From Candidatus Micrarchaeia archaeon (lineage in GTDB: Archaea > Micrarchaeota > Micrarchaeia > CAILAH01): DNA of 64,000 nt. The notes below the pieces were generated by a model. That model ran no database searches. It had not been told where the DNA came from and saw only the letters and a list, made by a program, of their open reading frames with translations. Shown piece by piece: positions 5,781 to 63,012 of the stretch (the first letter of the stretch is position 1; every line of letters begins with the position of its first letter). The stretch is taken from positions 17,594 to 81,593 of the forward strand of contig JAVZCB010000005.1 in assembly GCA_038874595.1 (NCBI GenBank), given 5' to 3'. The position numbers were made by a program, and so were the translations under genes.

Positions 5781-5835
5781 CTGCCAGCGTTTTGCTTAAA
5801 AATATTCCGTGCAAAGTTAGTTTGAGTGGAGCATT

Positions 5836-6078
5836 ATGTCAAAACAGGAGCATATGAATTACCTAATGGGAATTGGCATCTCCGATGTAGATGCTGATAC
5901 TGTATATGACTGCATTGCCACACGTGAGGTGTGCACGTGGACAAGTGTAGATGCTGTGCCTGATGATACAGAGCAGAAGGTAAATGAATACCTCAAGCCG
6001 TATGGCCTGGAAGTAAAGATTATCCCTGTGGGTGTAAGCGGCAGGTATATTTGGGAAGTCAAGAAAACACGGGCTTAA
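5836..6078 (+). CDS. Hypothetical protein (80 aa)
   Basis: ORF with ATG start in an intergenic-sized gap; no recognisable motif. Confidence 0.35.
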   Translation: MSKQEHMNYLMGIGISDVDADTVYDCIATREVCTWTSVDAVPDDTEQKVNEYLKPYGLEVKIIPVGVSGRYIWEVKKTRA

Positions 6079-6135
6079 CAACCAAAACGGGTATTAACTG
6101 AGTTAAATGCGGTTTTTAATTTAACGCGGCTATTT

Positions 6136-9011: not shown

Positions 9012-9026
9012 TGTACCACCTGTCAA

Positions 9027-9240
9027 CTATTTCTACAATAAATATTATAAATATGAATTAAACCTCACTTCATAAAAATAAATGAACCTGATTGCATGCA
9101 ATACGCGTGCTTGTTTTTTATGATGGGAGATTCTATATAAGCCTAGTTGTAGTTCTACTATTTTATGAATGAGAAAGAAATAGTGGAATTAAGTATTTAA
9201 AATATCGTGCGCTTAATCTGCTGCTTGTTTTGAGTGTGGT
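9027..9240. other. Candidate replication origin (oriC) region upstream of orc1/cdc6
   Basis: AT-rich 214-bp divergent intergenic region; perfect palindrome ATTGCATGCAAT; one AGTGGAA mini-ORB-like core near 9181. Confidence 0.35.
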
Positions 9241-10425
9241 ATGATGCTGACATTTGAGGAGCTGATGGAAAGGAGCGGTGTGTTTAAGGATATGAATATG
9301 CTTTCACCGCATTACATCCCAGATGTCCTGCCTCACAGGGAAGAAGAAATTGAAACCATAATGAAAACCGTTGCGCCTGCTCTTAAGAATACAAAACCAA
9401 AAAACATGTTCCTCTATGGCAAGACAGGTACCGGCAAAACTTGCTCAACCCGCCTAGTGATGGAAAAGTTCAATGCAATGAATAAGAATGCCATCATGAG
9501 ATATATGAACTGCAGGATTTATGATTCAAGGTACAAAATCATATTCAAGATAGTTAATGATGTATGCAAAGAAGATGCAAAAATGGGGTACCCTCTCTCA
9601 AAGCTTTACGAATCAATGCTGGAATGGGTTGAGCAGAACAACACGCACACCATAATTGTGCTTGATGAGATTGATATGGTTGATGATGTCGACGACCTGG
9701 TGTACACCATGACAAGGATAAATGATGAGCTTGAGCGCGGTAGTGTCTCAATAATAGGCATTTCAAACCGCTTACATTTCAAAGAAAAACTCGACCCGCG
9801 CAGCAAGAGCGCATTGTACGAGAAGGAAATCGTGTTCAGGCCTTACAATGCAACACAGCTGTACGAGATACTCAAGCAGCGGGCGGAAGGTGCCTTCATA
9901 AAGGAAGGTGTTGAAGACGCCGCTATAAGGCTCGCAGCCGCAGTTGCTGCACGAGAAACTGGCGATGCGAGATATGCTGTAAAGCTCCTGCACAAGGCCG
10001 GTGTAATAGCAAATGAAAATGGGGATTTGAAAGTTACTGAAAAGCACGTGGAAAATGCAAGAAAGAGCGTCGATGAGGATCTGGTTGTTGAGGCAATCAC
10101 CACCCTGCCACAGCACGAGCAGATTGCGCTGTATGGGATATCTTTATTGCAATTAAAAGGCAGCGCATATAAGAGGCTCGGTGAGGACGGCCAGGACATA
10201 TTCATGTCCGGAGAGGTATATGAAAGTTATGTAAAAGCGTGCAAAAGCCTTTCCGTAACCCCAAGAAGTGCGCGATGGTTCTCTGAATACTTAAATGATT
10301 TGGATATGCTTGGGCTGATTGCACTGACATCTTCAGGAAAGGGGACGCGTGGGCAAACGCGGTTTATTAAGCTGGCGTATGACCCTGCAAGGATAAAGGC
10401 CATTGTTGAGAAAATATTCAGCTGA
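9241..10425 (+). CDS. orc1: Orc1/Cdc6 replication initiator
   Basis: Walker A GKTGTGKT, AAA+ architecture, C-terminal winged helix; ATG start confirmed. Confidence 0.9.
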   Translation: MMLTFEELMERSGVFKDMNMLSPHYIPDVLPHREEEIETIMKTVAPALKNTKPKNMFLYGKTGTGKTCSTRLVMEKFNAMNKNAIMRYMNCRIYDSRYKIIFKIVNDVCKEDAKMGYPLSKLYESMLEWVEQNNTHTIIVLDEIDMVDDVDDLVYTMTRINDELERGSVSIIGISNRLHFKEKLDPRSKSALYEKEIVFRPYNATQLYEILKQRAEGAFIKEGVEDAAIRLAAAVAARETGDARYAVKLLHKAGVIANENGDLKVTEKHVENARKSVDEDLVVEAITTLPQHEQIALYGISLLQLKGSAYKRLGEDGQDIFMSGEVYESYVKACKSLSVTPRSARWFSEYLNDLDMLGLIALTSSGKGTRGQTRFIKLAYDPARIKAIVEKIFS

Positions 10426-19206: not shown

Positions 19207-19668
19207 ATGAGGTCTGGTGTGCAGGCCAGGGCCAGTGATAAGGCAGCGTTGGCCCTTATTAGCGAGCAGGAAAAACTTACTGGTGGCAAAGCCAGAGAGC
19301 AGAAAGGACTATTGGAGATTATCAATAGCGGCTTTAAGCGTATTACTGGATTCATAATAGATAGTCAAAGAAAAAAGGAGTCTATAGAACGGATAGATAA
19401 CAAGCTGGATAACTGTATGAAAAAGCTTGAGACGATTTATGAGAGCACGGGAAATCCGATACTAAGGAGGGCCGTTCTTGATTCAATTGAGAAAATTAAG
19501 GAGATATATTCACTGCACGTGCTTGAGATTGAAACTATGTATTCATCAAATGAAAAGATTGAGAATAAGCTCGTGTTTTACAAGGTTATGGAGAGCGATG
19601 CGATTGAAGATATGGATGATGTCGTTTCGCAGCTGAAAAAAATGCTTGTGAATCCTGAAAAAAGGTAA
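19207..19668 (+). CDS. Hypothetical coiled-coil protein
   Basis: 153 aa, charged and helical; no recognisable motif. Confidence 0.4.
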   Translation: MRSGVQARASDKAALALISEQEKLTGGKAREQKGLLEIINSGFKRITGFIIDSQRKKESIERIDNKLDNCMKKLETIYESTGNPILRRAVLDSIEKIKEIYSLHVLEIETMYSSNEKIENKLVFYKVMESDAIEDMDDVVSQLKKMLVNPEKR

Positions 19669-19716
19669 GCACAACTAATGACAACTAATGATAAAGAAAA
19701 TAAATACAGGTGTAAG

Positions 19717-19900
19717 TTAATCTTCGCATAGCACAAAAAAACTGCTGTGATAAGCGTGTGCTTGAGTGGTTGGCCTCATAAATCCTGAATAGATTAATCT
19801 TCACATAGCACAAAAAAACTGCTGTGATAAGCGTGTGCTTGAGTGGTTGGCCTCATAAATCCTGAATAGATTAATCTTCGCATAACACAAAAAAGCTGCA
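19717..19900. repeat. Tandem direct repeat, 77-bp unit, about 2.4 copies
   Basis: Units start at 19717, 19794 and 19871; copies 1 and 2 differ at one position; also a 10-bp tandem ACAACTAATG x2 at 19671-19690. Confidence 0.85.
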
Positions 19901-19910
19901 CCTGCCAGCA

Positions 19911-20921
19911 CTAAATAACCTTTATGTCTATTACATACTGGTCTGTATCAGGAGAATATGTGCGCACACGGCGCGTATATATTATTTCTGCCGGCCTGCC
20001 AAGCAAAGATAATGCTTCATCGCATAACTGCTTGACTGCACCTTTTTGTGCAAACCCGTAAACGTGGATTATACACCCATTCTTTGCAGTGTGTGATACA
20101 TAAGGCAAGAATGCAAGCGCATCTTTCGGGAGGGGCATTATTATCCTGTCAGCCCAGTCATTAAACTTCTTATCCTTGAGCACTTCCTTCACGTCACCCT
20201 GGACTGGGATTACCTTGCCTTCAACCTTGTTGAGCTTGACATTCTCAACCGCATACTTATGGCCTTCCGGATTCAATTCTATTGAGTATACGAGTATGCT
20301 CCGCTCTTTTGCTATTATAATGGGGAACGGTGCAACACCTGAAAACAACGCAAGGATATGCTCACCATCCCTTACTTGCTTGAGTATCCGCTCACGCTCG
20401 TGCGAAAGCCGGGGCGAAAAATATACCTTTGACACATCAACCTTGAACCTGCACTTACGTTCCTTGTGCACCGTCTCAGTCCTGTGCTCACCAGCAAGAT
20501 GCCTCAAACCGCGTACCCTATACTCACCGGCAATACCGCTATCCTTCGCAAAAACAGCCCTGACATTCTTATGCAGCCTTAAAATCTCACTGCCTATCTC
20601 CTTTTCCCTGGATTTCAAACTATCTGGTATTTCTATTATTGCAATGTCGCCTATTATGTCAAATGAGCGGATTTCCCTTATCCCAAGTGATTGTGCGATC
20701 GTTCTTGGCCTGCGCTCGCGTGGCTTGACTTGGGCCATTACAACTTCCTTACCTTTAAGATAAGGATGGTCTGCGGTTGAAAGTGGAAAATAGATATATG
20801 AGGAATCACTTTTTATCGTGTAATTGTTATCAAGAAGGTTAAGCTCAACAAGCTTTTTCCTTGTTAACTCTCCCTCCTTTTTTTCAACTTTCAGACATGG
20901 GATATCATTCATGGCCTGCAC
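19911..20921 (-). CDS. Trm5/Taw2-family (Met-10+ like) tRNA methyltransferase
   Basis: Class I methyltransferase core and family-typical C-terminal motifs. Confidence 0.75.
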   Translation of the reverse strand: MQAMNDIPCLKVEKKEGELTRKKLVELNLLDNNYTIKSDSSYIYFPLSTADHPYLKGKEVVMAQVKPRERRPRTIAQSLGIREIRSFDIIGDIAIIEIPDSLKSREKEIGSEILRLHKNVRAVFAKDSGIAGEYRVRGLRHLAGEHRTETVHKERKCRFKVDVSKVYFSPRLSHERERILKQVRDGEHILALFSGVAPFPIIIAKERSILVYSIELNPEGHKYAVENVKLNKVEGKVIPVQGDVKEVLKDKKFNDWADRIIMPLPKDALAFLPYVSHTAKNGCIIHVYGFAQKGAVKQLCDEALSLLGRPAEIIYTRRVRTYSPDTDQYVIDIKVI

Positions 20922-21465: not shown

Positions 21466-22728
21466 TTATCCTGTGCTTGCCGAGTACTTCTTCTCAAGCA
21501 CCGGTTCTGCCTTGACAATCTCATCCCCTACTATATAAACCTCAAACTTCCCAATTTCTGGGACGCCGGCCTTTACCGTGCTTGGGAGAATGGCAGTGAC
21601 ATACATACTCCTTACATAATACTCCTTCCCACCTATCGGTATCGCAATGTTACCGGTTGATGCGTTGCACACCCTATACACTTCCACGGAGATGGGCGTG
21701 TAATTTATGCTTTGCAGCGCATTTGCAATTTTCTGCTCGTCACCTTCATAGTTAAACCTCATTTCAAGCATGGGCGGCGAGAAGGAGACGTTAACTGTAT
21801 TGTTTGTAACTTTCGCAACCACATCACTTATCTGCTCCTCCGTGTATGTATAGTTATCATAAAACACCAGCTTGTTAAACTGCACCACATAAAGGCCTGG
21901 AAGGTACTTCTTTATCTCATTAATCTGTGTTTTGTTAAATGTATCGGTTGCATACACTGTGGTATCGCTTACATAGTTGAACCTGATGTTTGTTGCATTA
22001 ATGGCTTTGAGGGATTCGTTGAGGGCATCGAGCGACCTGCGCACACCTTCCCTATCGTGCCACATAAAGTACATTCTTGCATAATGCTCCGGATATAACT
22101 TTAACGGGAGCACCGGCATATCTACAACTTCGGTGCGCGCAAGTGGGGTCAGCTTTGCGCCTACCACTTGCCCCTTATATATCTGGACAAGTGCGCTGAA
22201 GTACAGCTGCTCGCCCTTCGCGTACGGCTTTGCAACGTTAATCTTGCTCATTGGTATTGATGCCTTTACCTTGCTGCCGTTCTGAAGAGTAAAATCAAAT
22301 GCCTGGCTGCTGTTCACATACGCCTCCAGCAGCATTGTCACATTTTGGTCCAAGGACATCAGGTTCGATGCGACAGGCAGGGTATCATCCCCCGACGATA
22401 ATGTTACTGTGATATACTGTGGGTTTGACTGGTCCAGGTAAATGACCTTATTGCCCGCCTGCAACTGCTTCAGGTAAGCCATTGCTGCAGCATTCGGTCG
22501 CGTGAGCCGGATTACTGGAGAATATGAATTAACTACTAGCATAACGTTCCCCATCCCCACCGAAAGGCTCATCTCCTCTTCTTCAGGTAAGTTCTGGGTC
22601 TGGCTTGTCTGGCCACCGTTTCTAGGCTGGTGCATAAACCACGTAGCAAGTGTTGAAAGCACAAAGATAACTGCAACGAGTACTACGATTGCCTGTATTA
22701 TCTGCATGCGGGTCAGGCTAAGTTTCAT
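21466..22728 (-). CDS. Membrane-anchored extracellular protein
   Basis: N-terminal TM anchor from the ATG at 22728 (track start 22845 is likely upstream of the true start); many N-x-S/T sequons. Confidence 0.5.
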   Translation of the reverse strand: MKLSLTRMQIIQAIVVLVAVIFVLSTLATWFMHQPRNGGQTSQTQNLPEEEEMSLSVGMGNVMLVVNSYSPVIRLTRPNAAAMAYLKQLQAGNKVIYLDQSNPQYITVTLSSGDDTLPVASNLMSLDQNVTMLLEAYVNSSQAFDFTLQNGSKVKASIPMSKINVAKPYAKGEQLYFSALVQIYKGQVVGAKLTPLARTEVVDMPVLPLKLYPEHYARMYFMWHDREGVRRSLDALNESLKAINATNIRFNYVSDTTVYATDTFNKTQINEIKKYLPGLYVVQFNKLVFYDNYTYTEEQISDVVAKVTNNTVNVSFSPPMLEMRFNYEGDEQKIANALQSINYTPISVEVYRVCNASTGNIAIPIGGKEYYVRSMYVTAILPSTVKAGVPEIGKFEVYIVGDEIVKAEPVLEKKYSASTG

Positions 22729-22784
22729 GGGTTTGATTAAGGGGATAAAGTTTAAAGTGTTTTGGATTTGAATAGTGCCGGAAG

Positions 22785-23489
22785 GTGTTATGGATGGCAG
22801 TAGAGAAAGGTGATTTGGTAAAGATAGAGTATACTGCATATACAAAGAGCGGCGATGTCATTGACACGACTGATGCTGAGAAAGCAAAAAAAGGCGGGAT
22901 ATTTGACCCAAAGAAAAAATATGGCGCTGTGGTAATACATGCAGGCCATAACGATGTGCTGGAAGGTGTTGATGAGGGAATCATTGGGATGGAAGAAAAC
23001 GTGCCGAAGGAATTTGAGATCCCACCTGAAAAAGCGTTTGGAAAAAGAAACGAGGACCTGGTAAGGATAATCCCGCTCAAGCAGTTCAGGGAGGCAAATA
23101 TCAACCCTGTGCCAGGTCAGGTTATTAATATAGATAATACGCCCGCAACTATTAGGGCTGTGAACAGTGGTAGGGTGGTTGTGGATTTCAATCATCCATT
23201 GTCTGGGGTCCCGCTGAAGTATGAGGTTAAGGTGCTCAAGGATGCAAAATCGCTTCAGGATAAGGCGTTATTGCTTTCGGAGAAGTATGAGATGAAGGCA
23301 GATGTGAAGGTATCTGGAGATAATGTTTCAGTAGACCTTGGTGTGAGCATATTTGATGATAAGAGGGCGCGCGACTCTGCAGCGGTTGCACTTATTGCAC
23401 GCGAGCTGAAAGAGCACGGTGCAAAGAAAGTCCAGTTCAAGGGTGAATGGAAGCTTTCAGATGAAAGTGCCAACAAAAAAGAGCATTAA
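22785..23489 (+). CDS. FKBP-type peptidyl-prolyl cis-trans isomerase
   Basis: GDLVKIEYTAYTKSGDVIDTT FKBP signature with insert-in-flap and C-terminal domain. Confidence 0.8.
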   Translation: MLWMAVEKGDLVKIEYTAYTKSGDVIDTTDAEKAKKGGIFDPKKKYGAVVIHAGHNDVLEGVDEGIIGMEENVPKEFEIPPEKAFGKRNEDLVRIIPLKQFREANINPVPGQVINIDNTPATIRAVNSGRVVVDFNHPLSGVPLKYEVKVLKDAKSLQDKALLLSEKYEMKADVKVSGDNVSVDLGVSIFDDKRARDSAAVALIARELKEHGAKKVQFKGEWKLSDESANKKEH

Positions 23490-24397: not shown

Positions 24398-24531
24398 CAG
24401 AAAATTTCTGCTGCAACATTAAAAATAATTATTAGTTAACACCGTTACTACCAACAAGTGTGCTGTGTGCTGCTTATTGAGTTTTATTGAGATTCTTATT
24501 GATAATACCAAGTGCCTGCGCGCTTTTTTGC

Positions 24532-25305: not shown

Positions 25306-25974
25306 TCAATAGCAAAAATGCCTCTTGAAGAGGTAATCTGCAATATTGTTGTTGCCGCACATGCGTGCTATATCAATTGCAGTATGCTGCCATTCATCCT
25401 CAAACAATATCCACGCGCCATTATTAACCAGCATCCTGGCTATGCGCATGCTACCGCTCGCTGATGCAAACATCAACGCCGTGGAGCCAGAGAAGTTGCG
25501 TGCATTGACATCCGCTCCTGCATCAATAAGCATCTTTGCAATTGTTACTTCGCTAAGTGATGCCGCCCACATCAGTGCGTTGTCGCCAAGCACTGTCGGC
25601 AGGTCAACCTGTGCGCCTGCATTGAGCAGATGGGATACAATCCTAATCCTGTTGCACATTGTAGCCAATACTATTACAGGTGTGCCCTCATCATCAACCA
25701 CGTTTGGGTTTGCACCGCTTTCAAGCAGTGCTTTGACCGCACCGCTGTCACCTTTCAGGGTAGCATAAATAAGTGCATAGCCGAGCTGTACGTCATGTCC
25801 CTGCTTGTAAATCCAATTTAAGTCAGGGATGAGCTTATTTATCTTGTTTGTCAAGGGCAGCATAGCATTTTTTCGAAAACTGTTTATCCTATGTGCCTTC
25901 TCTGCGGGGGACTGCGAAGGCTCAACAATAAAATCGCATGCCTGCACTGTTGCTGTTTTCATCTGGCTGATCAT
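25306..25974 (-). CDS. Ankyrin-repeat protein
   Basis: Multiple 33-residue ankyrin repeats with G-TPL..A...G motifs. Confidence 0.7.
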   Translation of the reverse strand: MISQMKTATVQACDFIVEPSQSPAEKAHRINSFRKNAMLPLTNKINKLIPDLNWIYKQGHDVQLGYALIYATLKGDSGAVKALLESGANPNVVDDEGTPVIVLATMCNRIRIVSHLLNAGAQVDLPTVLGDNALMWAASLSEVTIAKMLIDAGADVNARNFSGSTALMFASASGSMRIARMLVNNGAWILFEDEWQHTAIDIARMCGNNNIADYLFKRHFCY

Positions 25975-26334
25975 TTTGCCCCACTCAGTATATATTATTG
26001 TATTTCATACTTAAAAACATTTTGATAGCAGGAAAAGCTAAAACAGGTTAAAAATCATAAAAGCGCTTTTTTTGAAAATTATAGTGAATAGAAGCTTATA
26101 AAAGCGAATTGCGCTTTTATAATTGCTTTTTTGCTCAAACAGATTAACTAAGGTGTTTTTTGCCTCTAAAAAAACAAAGAAAAAGCGTTACCGCCTGAAA
26201 AGTTAAGATTAAATATGGGCATAAAATTTCCGCCTGAATTTTAAGCTTAAATAGAAATTGCTATAATGTATTGGTGCGGGGGGTTAAGTAAAATCGCATG
26301 CCTATGAGTTTTACTGCCTAAGCGGGGTGTTTTA

Positions 26335-38580: not shown

Positions 38581-38921
38581 TGAGCGGTTGGTGGGCAGCT
38601 TACGGTGCCTTTCTTTGGTGCAGCTTTCTTTAGAAAGCTGGGAACTTGATAAGCTCCTGTACACCAAAAGAAAGGTACTGAGGAAGGTCCACCCACGCAG
38701 AGCTCTGACTGCATTAATATTGCAGATGGGGGAACAGAAACGGTACCCTCCCCGCCTTATGGGATGAGGATAACGACTTCGGTGGGATAAGGGATGAAAC
38801 GGCCTCCTGTGCAGGGCTGTGAGCGTGCAAGCCCTTTCGGGCGCTTAGACAAATGCTGCCAAGATGAGCATATCCATAAGGAAGTGCATCTTACAGAAGG
38901 TGGCCTACAACCAGCCGCTCA
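38581..38921 (+). ncRNA. rnpB: RNase P RNA (candidate)
   Basis: 10-bp terminal helix UGAGCGGUUG (38581-38590) with CAGCCGCUCA (38912-38921); CR-I-like GAGGAAGGUCCACCC (38680-38694); CR-V-like ACAGAAGGUGGCCUA (38893-38907); these form a P4-like pairing with a bulged U. Confidence 0.7.
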
Positions 38922-57314: not shown

Positions 57315-58777
57315 ATAAAAATAAGCGCGCACCGGCAGATAAGGAAAACAGTATGGTGCGGGATAACCAAAACCTGAACATGCGTGCAGTAATTGAGCCG
57401 AGCAGTATTGTAGTTATTGGTGCATCAAGAAACCCATCAAAGGTTGGGTATGCCGTGCTCAAGAACCTTATCACGAGTGGGTTTAATGGCTGGCTTTATG
57501 CCGTAAATCCGAACGCTGATAACATACTTGGTGTGAGATGTTACAAGAGCATCAAGGAACTCCCTCAGAAAGTTGACTGTGCAATAATAGCTGTGCCTGC
57601 AGAAAACGTAAATGAGATAATCGAGGAATGCGGCAGAAAGGGGGTTCGTGGAGCAATTGTGATTTCCGGCGGGTTCAAGGAAGTTGGGGAAGTGAAGCGT
57701 GAGTTGGAGCTCACAAAAATATGCAGAAAATATGGCATTGCAATGATAGGGCCGAACTGTCTCGGGATAGTAAATAGGAAAAAGCACGTTGACAGCATAT
57801 TCCTCCCAACATATAAGATGAAGAGGCCGCAGCTCGGGAAGATTAGTTTCGTGACACAGAGCGGTGCCGTCGGCTCAACAATACTCGACCTTATAGGGGA
57901 GTCAAACATAGGTGTCTCAAAATTCATATCGTACGGTAATGCTGCTGTCATTGATGAGAGTGATTTGCTGCGCTATCTGCGTGAGGATGCTGACACATCG
58001 GTTGTGGTTATGTATATCGAAGGTGTAAAGGACGGCAGGAAGTTTTATAGGGAGCTTAAGGAAACATGCGCAGTCAAGCCGGTTGTTGTCTTAAAGGCAG
58101 GAAAAGGTGCGTTGGCTGCAGGTGCGGCAAAATCACATACTGGTGCGCTTGCAGGTGATTACAAGATTTTCCAGGCAATGCTGAAACAAGCGGGTGCGGT
58201 TGAGGCGACAAACCTGCCGGAGTTATTCAACTTATCAAAGATATTCCTACAGCCATTGCCCAAAGGGGATAGGATGTTCGTGCTCACGAACGGTGGTGGC
58301 GATGGTGTGCTCGCAGTGGATGCAATCGAAAGGAACGGGTTGAAACTGGCACAACTGAGCGGGAAAATGCGTGCAAAACTGCGGAGGATTCTGCCAAAGC
58401 ATGTTGTTGTTGGCAACCCGTTTGACCTAACAGGCGATGCGGACAGCACGAGGTACAGGACCGTGCTTGAAGAGGCAGTAAAAGAGGAGGGCATCGATGC
58501 AATCATTGCAATAACACTGTTTCAAACGGCCGGCCTTGGCTCTGAGGTCGTCAATGAGATTATAAGCGCCGATATCAAAACGGATAAAACGATTGTATCT
58601 GTTGCAACTGGTGGTGAGTATACGCGCCTCCTCCTCAGCATAATAGAATCTTCCGGAATACCTGCGTATGGGTCGCCAAGCGAAGCTGTTGATTCAATCG
58701 CAAAGGCGTTATGGTATTATAAGAAGAGGGGTGTGGGCCGCGGGACAGTACAAAGCGCTGGAGACGGCAGCGTGTGA
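57311..58777 (+). CDS. NDP-forming acetyl-CoA synthetase (ACD), alpha subunit
   Basis: CoA-binding VIGASRNPSKVGY and catalytic-His loop GKGALAAGAAKSHTGALAG. Confidence 0.8.
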   Translation: MNKNKRAPADKENSMVRDNQNLNMRAVIEPSSIVVIGASRNPSKVGYAVLKNLITSGFNGWLYAVNPNADNILGVRCYKSIKELPQKVDCAIIAVPAENVNEIIEECGRKGVRGAIVISGGFKEVGEVKRELELTKICRKYGIAMIGPNCLGIVNRKKHVDSIFLPTYKMKRPQLGKISFVTQSGAVGSTILDLIGESNIGVSKFISYGNAAVIDESDLLRYLREDADTSVVVMYIEGVKDGRKFYRELKETCAVKPVVVLKAGKGALAAGAAKSHTGALAGDYKIFQAMLKQAGAVEATNLPELFNLSKIFLQPLPKGDRMFVLTNGGGDGVLAVDAIERNGLKLAQLSGKMRAKLRRILPKHVVVGNPFDLTGDADSTRYRTVLEEAVKEEGIDAIIAITLFQTAGLGSEVVNEIISADIKTDKTIVSVATGGEYTRLLLSIIESSGIPAYGSPSEAVDSIAKALWYYKKRGVGRGTVQSAGDGSV

Positions 58778-59700
58778 GCAGTATGATAGCCCAGCTAAAC
58801 AGTATTGTCCTGCTTTTTCTCCTTTATTTAAACATCAAGCTCATACGGAAATATATTGATACCGATGATGCAAATTATGTCATTGCATTCGCTGTACTTC
58901 TCTTCTTGTTCTTCAACCTATGGTTGGGAGCGTATGCGGAAATACTCGGCAGGTTCCAGCAGCAGTTCACAATTGCTATGAACGCGTTGCCAATGATAAT
59001 TGTAATTGTGCTTGTGTGGCTTGAAGGAAAAAGGAAAAAGGAAGAGCGGGAAAGAAGGAAAACGCGCGAGTTCTTCTCAAAGTATGTTTCAGAGAAGATT
59101 GTAGACACTCTCCTCAAGGAAAAACAACTTGAGCTTGGCGGTGAGAAGCATCAAGTAACTGTTCTTTTCACGGATGTGCGCGGGTTTACTGCAATGTCTG
59201 AGAGGCTTGACCCGAAGCAGGTCGTTGAAGTGCTTAACGGGCACTTTGATATAATCAATGAGGAAATATTCAGAGAAAATGGTACCGTGCTCAAGTATAT
59301 CGGAGACTCTGCAATGGCTGTGTTTAATGCCCCTATCTTGCAGAAAGACCATGCTGAAAAGGCTGTGCGGGCGTGCATAGCCGTGCAAAAAAGGATGAAA
59401 GAATACTCATCTACAGTTAAAGGTAAAATGAATATTGATTTTGCAATTGGTATAGGGATAAATAGCGGTGAAGCGGTTGTCGGCAATATCGGCTCACACA
59501 AGTATATGGATTATACGGTCATAGGAGATGCCGTGAACACGGCGTCGCGGTTAAATGGCATTGCAAAAGCTGGTGAGATAGTCGTGAGTGAGAGCACATA
59601 CGAGCTCATTAAAGACAAGTTCAGGTTTAGCAAACCAGAGGAGGTTCCAGTTAAAGGGAAGGTGCTTCCAGTCAAGGTTTATAGGGTGCTTTATGAATAG
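58774..59700 (+). CDS. Membrane-anchored class III nucleotidyl (adenylyl) cyclase
   Basis: N-terminal TM helices; CHD domain with metal-binding Asp in FTDVRGFT and IGD, substrate Lys in KYIGD, transition-state GDAVNTASRL; start overlaps the ACD alpha stop. Confidence 0.75.
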   Translation: MSSMIAQLNSIVLLFLLYLNIKLIRKYIDTDDANYVIAFAVLLFLFFNLWLGAYAEILGRFQQQFTIAMNALPMIIVIVLVWLEGKRKKEERERRKTREFFSKYVSEKIVDTLLKEKQLELGGEKHQVTVLFTDVRGFTAMSERLDPKQVVEVLNGHFDIINEEIFRENGTVLKYIGDSAMAVFNAPILQKDHAEKAVRACIAVQKRMKEYSSTVKGKMNIDFAIGIGINSGEAVVGNIGSHKYMDYTVIGDAVNTASRLNGIAKAGEIVVSESTYELIKDKFRFSKPEEVPVKGKVLPVKVYRVLYE

Positions 59701-62895: not shown

Positions 62896-63012
62896 TGGAC
62901 TCGCGGGGATTTGAACCCCGAGCCTCCACCTTATCCTTCTGCTTTTTGGAAGAGAAAGGGGTCTCCCTGCCTCTCTTGCGAAGGTGGCGTCATGCCGTTA
63001 GACCACGAGCCC
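62896..63012 (-). tRNA. tRNA-Ala (anticodon CGC) with about 45-nt intron
   Basis: Hand-folded cloverleaf: acceptor GGGCUCG/CGAGUCC with G3:U70, T-arm CGGGG-UUCAAAU-CCCCG, anticodon loop UUCGCA[intron]A, discriminator A; T-run follows the 3' end. Confidence 0.8.

Follow-up and report, generated by a model that had tools for sequence, protein, structure and literature searches.

What is the 77-bp tandem repeat that lies between two convergent genes in the compact genome of an uncultivated archaeon of the Micrarchaeia: a set of small RNA genes, a regulatory element, an error of assembly, or DNA that has multiplied by chance? The repeat occupies most of the 242-bp gap at 19669–19910, between two convergent stop codons, in the window (the whole 64-kb stretch of DNA that was analysed). 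A first-pass annotation, made from the letters of the DNA, proposed tandem copies of a small C/D-box-like RNA and named recent duplication by replication slippage as the alternative. The second proposal fits the results far better. The array is very probably a neutral, young, lineage-specific minisatellite (VNTR) that arose by replication slippage or unequal recombination.

Structure of the array

Tandem Repeats Finder places the array at 19717–19899, with a period of 77, 2.4 copies, 96% matches, no indels and a score of 345. A repeat search agrees, and both reproduce the first description of about 2.4 copies with one mismatch between full copies. Full copy 1 (19717–19793) and full copy 2 (19794–19870) are identical at 76 of 77 positions (99%); the sole mismatch is at unit position 10, which is G in copy 1 and A in copy 2. 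Both contain an A7 tract. Partial copy 3 (19871–19899) covers unit positions 1–29, with an A6 tract and two mismatches (93%), and adjoins 11 bp of unique sequence followed by the stop codon of the downstream gene. The copies are direct and head-to-tail (no strand is assigned to them or to the two 10-bp features below), and the array has 40% GC. Within the 64 kb, a 50-nt core of the unit matches nothing but the two full copies, with 0 expected in shuffles.

Two shorter features accompany the repeat. A perfect 10-bp tandem duplication, ACAACTAATG (2.1 copies, 19671–19691, Tandem Repeats Finder), stands upstream of the array, as first noticed. It directly follows the stop codon of the upstream ORF and is identical in the other strain, L001. 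A perfect 10-bp palindrome, AGATTAATCT, bridges the unit-to-unit junctions at 19791–19800 and again at 19868–19877; it shows no sign of function.

Some familiar classes of sequence were ruled out from this structure. A coding role is excluded by the intergenic position, by a period that is not divisible by 3 and by the lack of any ORF across the array. The entire 77-bp period repeats, without unique spacers, which excludes a CRISPR array. A MITE or other mobile element was excluded by the lack of terminal inverted repeats at the array ends and of further copies in the window, the relatives' loci and the collections searched.

Flanking genes and genome context

The array lies between the stops of a forward-transcribed gene (19207–19668) and a reverse-transcribed gene (19911–20912), which bears out the convergent arrangement first reported. 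The downstream gene encodes a Trm5/TYW2-family tRNA methyltransferase (hereafter Trm5; 333 aa in public assemblies) with Trm5_N, TYW2_N_2 and TRM5-TYW2 methyltransferase domains in Pfam. The upstream gene encodes a 153-aa protein that has no Pfam domain; its sequence and position are conserved within Micrarchaeia. The ORF found in the same place in L005 (5047–5517, − strand, E=5e-55) is 61% identical to it, and that in L006 (5067–5495, − strand) 25%. The proteins of the flanking genes are identical to ones from a MAG that bears the name Candidatus Micrarchaeia archaeon. Because the same-position ORFs of these two related MAGs align along its length, the 153-aa ORF is, by sequence comparison, a real gene. 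The word-indexed database returned the identical protein alone, which shows how readily such a small family is overlooked; the homologs were found via synteny instead. A further scan for loci related to the small ORF gave the same two and nothing more.

Gene order is kept in five relatives: Hjc, Trm5, the convergent small ORF, an NFACT-N protein and MetRS. A protein of about 415–420 aa without a Pfam domain (21466–22845, − strand; 420 aa in public assemblies) is kept between the Hjc and FKBP genes in all five of these syntenic relatives.

The genome is compact, with a median intergenic gap of 48 bp in the window. Convergent gaps are at most 99 bp in 12 of 14 cases, and the one other long convergent gap besides that of the array holds a tRNA. 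The longest intergenic gaps in the window are two divergent ones of about 355–360 bp (5781–6135 and 25975–26334); neither has an RNA gene or Rfam match.

The window holds an RNase P RNA of archaeal type and a tRNA with an intron. The RNase P RNA (38583–38919, + strand) is 337 nt long against a 288-position model, with an insertion of 67 nt where the model has 4 nt and another of 28 nt near the 3′ end. The Rfam match of the tRNA (62896–63012, − strand) spans 117 nt, and the tRNA therefore has a long intron; a TTTATAT box lies about 30 nt upstream. ARAGORN detected no tRNAs in the window, including this one. Among the protein-coding genes are those for an adenylate/guanylate cyclase catalytic-domain protein (58774–59700, + strand, E=1.9e-33) and an ankyrin-repeat protein (25306–25974, − strand), both of which seem unusual for a small DPANN genome.

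Variation within the species

A second strain, L001 (GCA_038891275.1), carries the same 77-bp tandem structure. Its flanks are 99.8% identical to those of the window, with 22 substitutions in about 12.2 kb (0.18%). Its array has 3.3 copies where the window has 2.4; both are short-read MAG assemblies and the exact number is uncertain. The alleles also differ within the copies. In the window the poly-A tract is 7, 7 and 6 nt long by copy, unit position 10 is G, A and G, and positions 10 and 15 of the last partial copy are G and A. In L001 the poly-A tract is 6, 7, 6 and 10 nt long, unit position 10 is G, G, A and A, and positions 10 and 15 of the last partial copy are A and G. The A10 tract is found in both L001 and L015. 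The contig L004 (from run SRR30574052) has a single mismatch to the window over 4 kb, and this lies inside the last partial copy. Part of the difference between 2.4 and 3.3 copies could be an assembly effect, since short-read assembly can merge tandem repeats or get their number wrong. Real allelic differences are nevertheless favoured by the distinct patterns of SNPs and poly-A lengths and by the flank-specific variants.

Outside the array, L001 and the window differ by a single indel over about 12 kb: L001 has 11 additional bp, TTATTGAGTTC, at about 24484. It falls within another tandem repeat (24473–24502, period about 10–12, 2.7 copies), located between the UvdE and amino-acid-kinase genes. 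Because each indel sits in a tandem repeat, slippage at such repeats would explain all the indels that separate the two strains.

The tandem structure is also found in Logan contig junctions from two sequencing runs. Four Logan contigs run up to the locus, two per side, and all four end inside the array. Junctions of flank and unit appear in contigs from both runs; the junction between units, AATAGA|TTAATC, is present in the right-hand ones. Logan assemblies use k=31, so that breaks of this kind need at least two copies with identical stretches of at least 31 nt. The tandem structure is accordingly real.

Absence from relatives and public collections

The repeat is missing from related genomes. 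Stop-to-stop spacers at this locus in the five syntenic relatives, whose Trm5 proteins are 59–74% identical to that of the window, measure 14, 19, 2, 67 and 25 bp, and none contains a repeat. Searches with blastn-short and nhmmer found no trace of the 77-bp unit in these five loci or in the rest of the window. The GTDB species representatives, JGI metagenomes and IMG/VR contain no exact match to 22–27-mers taken from three places in the unit. Given the strain differences and this absence, the array is a recent, species-specific gain that is still changing. The first-pass annotation had named copy-number variation between strains and lack of conservation of the unit elsewhere as observations that would speak against an RNA gene; both were made (2.4 versus 3.3 copies; the unit in 0 of 5 relatives).

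Possible sources of the unit were also considered. A dispersed repeat, MITE or viral origin was rejected, as copies are lacking in the window, the relatives' loci, the GTDB species representatives, JGI metagenomes and IMG/VR. Derivation from the 3′ end of the upstream ORF (TTCGCA..GC..AAAAAAA..TGCT..GTGA, then ATCCTGAA) was rejected because the alignment scores 23, against 24–26 at unrelated sites in the window. The left and right parts of the spacer were rejected as decayed copies of the unit, their gapped local scores being those of random expectation (p about 0.5).

Origin of the array

The array is a fresh instance of a well-known kind of sequence, the ordinary hypervariable tandem repeat, and nothing in it points to an RNA gene, to coding or to regulation. 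Its origin as a VNTR is supported by the near-identical copies, the strain variability, the confinement of indels to tandem repeats, the nearby 10-bp duplication, the Logan contig breaks, the absence of the unit elsewhere and the lack of any RNA-gene signal (see below). Slippage, which the first-pass annotation had offered as its alternative, is supported by the strain-variable copies and the absence from relatives. The ancestral junction was probably very short, as in the relatives (2–67 bp), and would then have gained about 100 bp of untraceable origin. A 77-bp segment of the gained sequence would have been duplicated head-to-tail through replication slippage or unequal recombination. Whole units are probably still being gained and lost and the A/T homopolymer is still changing length, so that close strains differ in allele. 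The array itself is most likely selectively neutral non-coding DNA.

Prokaryotic minisatellites, or VNTR loci (period about 10–100 bp, used in MLVA typing), have the same properties. Like them, the array is intergenic and consists of head-to-tail, near-identical copies with a partial copy at the end. Its unit number differs between strains that are 99.8% identical, and a homopolymer within the unit changes length. Related species lack it, and short-read assemblies break at it. Unlike typical VNTR loci, it belongs to an uncultivated DPANN host (Micrarchaeia) with a very compact genome. The comparison extends to two or three alleles so far, with copy numbers taken from short-read assemblies.

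As a minisatellite, the array may serve as a strain-typing marker for this Micrarchaeia population, since its alleles differ where the strains are otherwise 99.8% identical. It would also explain why short-read assemblies break at this locus, and copy numbers in such assemblies should be regarded as unreliable. The array further suggests that slippage-type duplication adds intergenic DNA even to highly streamlined DPANN genomes.

Oligo-T runs and a possible cis-acting role

Archaeal RNA polymerase terminates at oligo-T tracts. On the − strand, a T6 run (19889–19894), which is a T10 run in L001, starts some 17 nt past the Trm5 stop, and each full unit reiterates the same tract as a T7 run (19735–19741 and 19812–19818). 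Given the known oligo-T termination of archaea, these runs may be called terminator-like with respect to Trm5. As a by-product of unit duplication, Trm5 transcription would meet up to three terminator-like signals. On the + strand there is no oligo-T run before 20043 and none inside the array.

The array might accordingly be read as a selected cis element, either with repeated oligo-T terminators and added spacer DNA that insulate the convergent transcription units against collision and antisense read-through, or with AGATTAATCT as a repeated protein-binding site. We regard this as unlikely. A T7 run on the Trm5 strand in each full unit, a first run about 17–22 nt past the Trm5 stop and a perfect palindrome at each unit junction would all suit such an element, as would the relatives' near lack of a spacer, by which their gene terminators must sit inside the opposing gene. 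However, those same five relatives manage with 2–67 bp and lack the element. Strains differ freely in copy number and T-run length, which speaks against constraint. The array provides no + strand terminator, and Trm5 would therefore be left unprotected from antisense read-through. By our own estimate (77 × 4^-5), about 7% of 77-mers would contain a 10-bp palindrome by chance. The T6–T10 runs do resemble archaeal oligo-T intrinsic terminators in lying on the Trm5 coding strand about 17 nt past the stop and in recurring per unit. They differ from an organised terminator array in that their reiteration is a consequence of the 77-bp duplication, and they are predicted from sequence. Some lineage-specific function is conceivable, given the unusual length of the spacer in a compact genome where a tRNA occupies the one other long convergent gap of the window.

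Small RNA candidates

The RNA proposal came from two motifs on the + strand. Each full unit contains a putative box C, GTGATAA, and a putative box D, CTGA (19747–19753 with 19785–19788 in copy 1; 19824–19830 with 19862–19865 in copy 2). This part of the first-pass annotation stands, but the spacing of about 35 nt given for the pair is corrected to 31 nt (GCGTGTGCTTGAGTGGTTGGCCTCATAAATC), for a core of 42 nt. Box D, CUGA, is exact in both full copies. Box C, GUGAUAA, has one mismatch to RUGAUGA, with A replacing the conserved G6. In this arrangement the putative guide is GGCCUCAUAAAUC.

Archaeal C/D sRNAs have been described as about 50 nt (PMC6009581) or 50–70 nt long (PMC7994747), with terminal RUGAUGA and CUGA boxes, less conserved central C′ and D′ boxes and two unstructured guides (PMC6009581, PMC7994747). 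Their guides pair with about 8–12 nt of the target, and methylation occurs 5 nt upstream of D or D′ (PMC6009581, PMC7994747).

Measured against this architecture, it is highly improbable that each unit is a C/D-box-like guide RNA gene, with GUGAUAA as C and CUGA as D, that directs 2′-O-methylation from the + strand, its RNA either transcribed alone or cut out of the small ORF's 3′ UTR. The setting is permissive. The host is archaeal (RNase P RNA, intron-containing tRNA), which makes C/D machinery plausible; the motif pair is present in both full copies. With no + strand oligo-T before 20043, transcription that runs on past the small ORF would include the array. The spacer is long by the standard of this genome, in which other long gaps hold RNA genes. 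Architecture and length speak against the proposal. The core is 42 nt against about 50–70 nt, and because the C–D gap is 31 nt there is no room for D′/C′ boxes and two guides. Canonical and relaxed scans found no acceptable D′/C′ pair with 10–13-nt guide spacing in the unit, and canonical and relaxed dual-guide patterns gave 0 matches anywhere in the window. Box C is degenerate at G6, and a terminal stem is impossible between the box-flanking AAACTGCT and ATAGATTA.

The covariance-model search suggested at the outset gave no match of any Rfam C/D family to the array, even at E<=10. Pairing of the putative guides with the window's tRNA and RNase P RNA reached runs of 6–9, no better than shuffled guides. 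Neither the whole spacer nor single units, in three phases and on both strands, folded better than dinucleotide shuffles (z-scores −0.6 to +0.9), and a structured RNA on either strand was rejected at this shuffle level. By direct reading, the RNase P RNA, the tRNA and the small ORF each have a TTTAWA-type TATA box at a distance of 27–30 nt upstream; the 77-bp unit, read in the same way, has none. A scan of 28 proteins of the window, which spans 64 kb of the genome, turned up no component of a C/D RNP. Neither the five syntenic relatives, nor any collection searched, nor the rest of the window contains the unit. One-mismatch C boxes are common by chance: 4.6% of random 77-mers drawn from the window have one with CUGA 25–45 nt further on, and loose C...D pairs occur at 46 sites window-wide. 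Both motif pairs were judged to be chance motifs.

The likeness of the unit to archaeal box C/D sRNAs is limited to a CUGA downstream of a one-mismatch RUGAUGA heptamer, on the same strand and in an archaeal intergenic region. Unlike those RNAs, it combines a 42-nt core with no C′/D′ boxes at 10–13-nt spacing and no terminal stem, it has no detected target complementarity in the tRNA or RNase P RNA, no covariance-model match and no conservation, and it is tandemly duplicated in strain-variable number. The proposed C/D gene fails on architecture and length, a defining feature, has no independent evidence in its favour, and is not supported. A looser version, in which the array encodes a newly arisen, species-specific small RNA, such as an atypical single-guide 42-nt C/D-like species released from a read-through 3′ UTR of the small ORF, has a very slim chance of being correct. 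If true, it would mean that a guide RNA gene had arisen de novo and been amplified in a DPANN archaeon.

Several sub-threshold Rfam matches were set aside. Those beside the array are noise: algC at the end of the ORF, snoZ152 at 20000–20034, inside Trm5, and CrcZ, which lies on the A-rich spacer before the array and extends only 13 nt into copy 1. A weak sR17 C/D match at 38760–38812 comes from the RNase P RNA, whose K-turn region (GAUGA...GAUGAAACG) it hits, and is not a C/D sRNA.

A possible assembly artefact

That the repeat is a mis-joined or duplicated sequence created during MAG assembly is extremely improbable. In its favour, short-read assemblers are weak on tandem repeats, the Logan contigs break here and the MAGs differ in copy number. 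Against it, flank-to-unit junctions recur in two independent MAGs and two independent Logan assemblies, the right-hand contigs hold the unit-to-unit junction and break as only at least two long identical copies would make them at k=31, and the copies carry distinguishing SNPs and poly-A variants.

A candidate replication origin

The array was also compared with a replication origin. An Orc1/Cdc6 gene (9241–10425, + strand) lies about 9.3 kb from the array and has its own 214-bp upstream gap. The array is unlikely to be an origin with ORB repeats, as orc1/cdc6 is not adjacent to it and it consists of direct tandem copies with 40% GC. The gap upstream of Orc1/Cdc6 (9027–9240, 214 bp) is unusually long for this genome and contains the short inverted repeats TAGTTCTACTATTT/AAATAGTGGAATTA and TCAACTATTTCT/AGAAATAGTGGA, the left arm of the latter beginning at 9023, 4 bp before the gap. 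On these features, 9027–9240 is a candidate replication origin.
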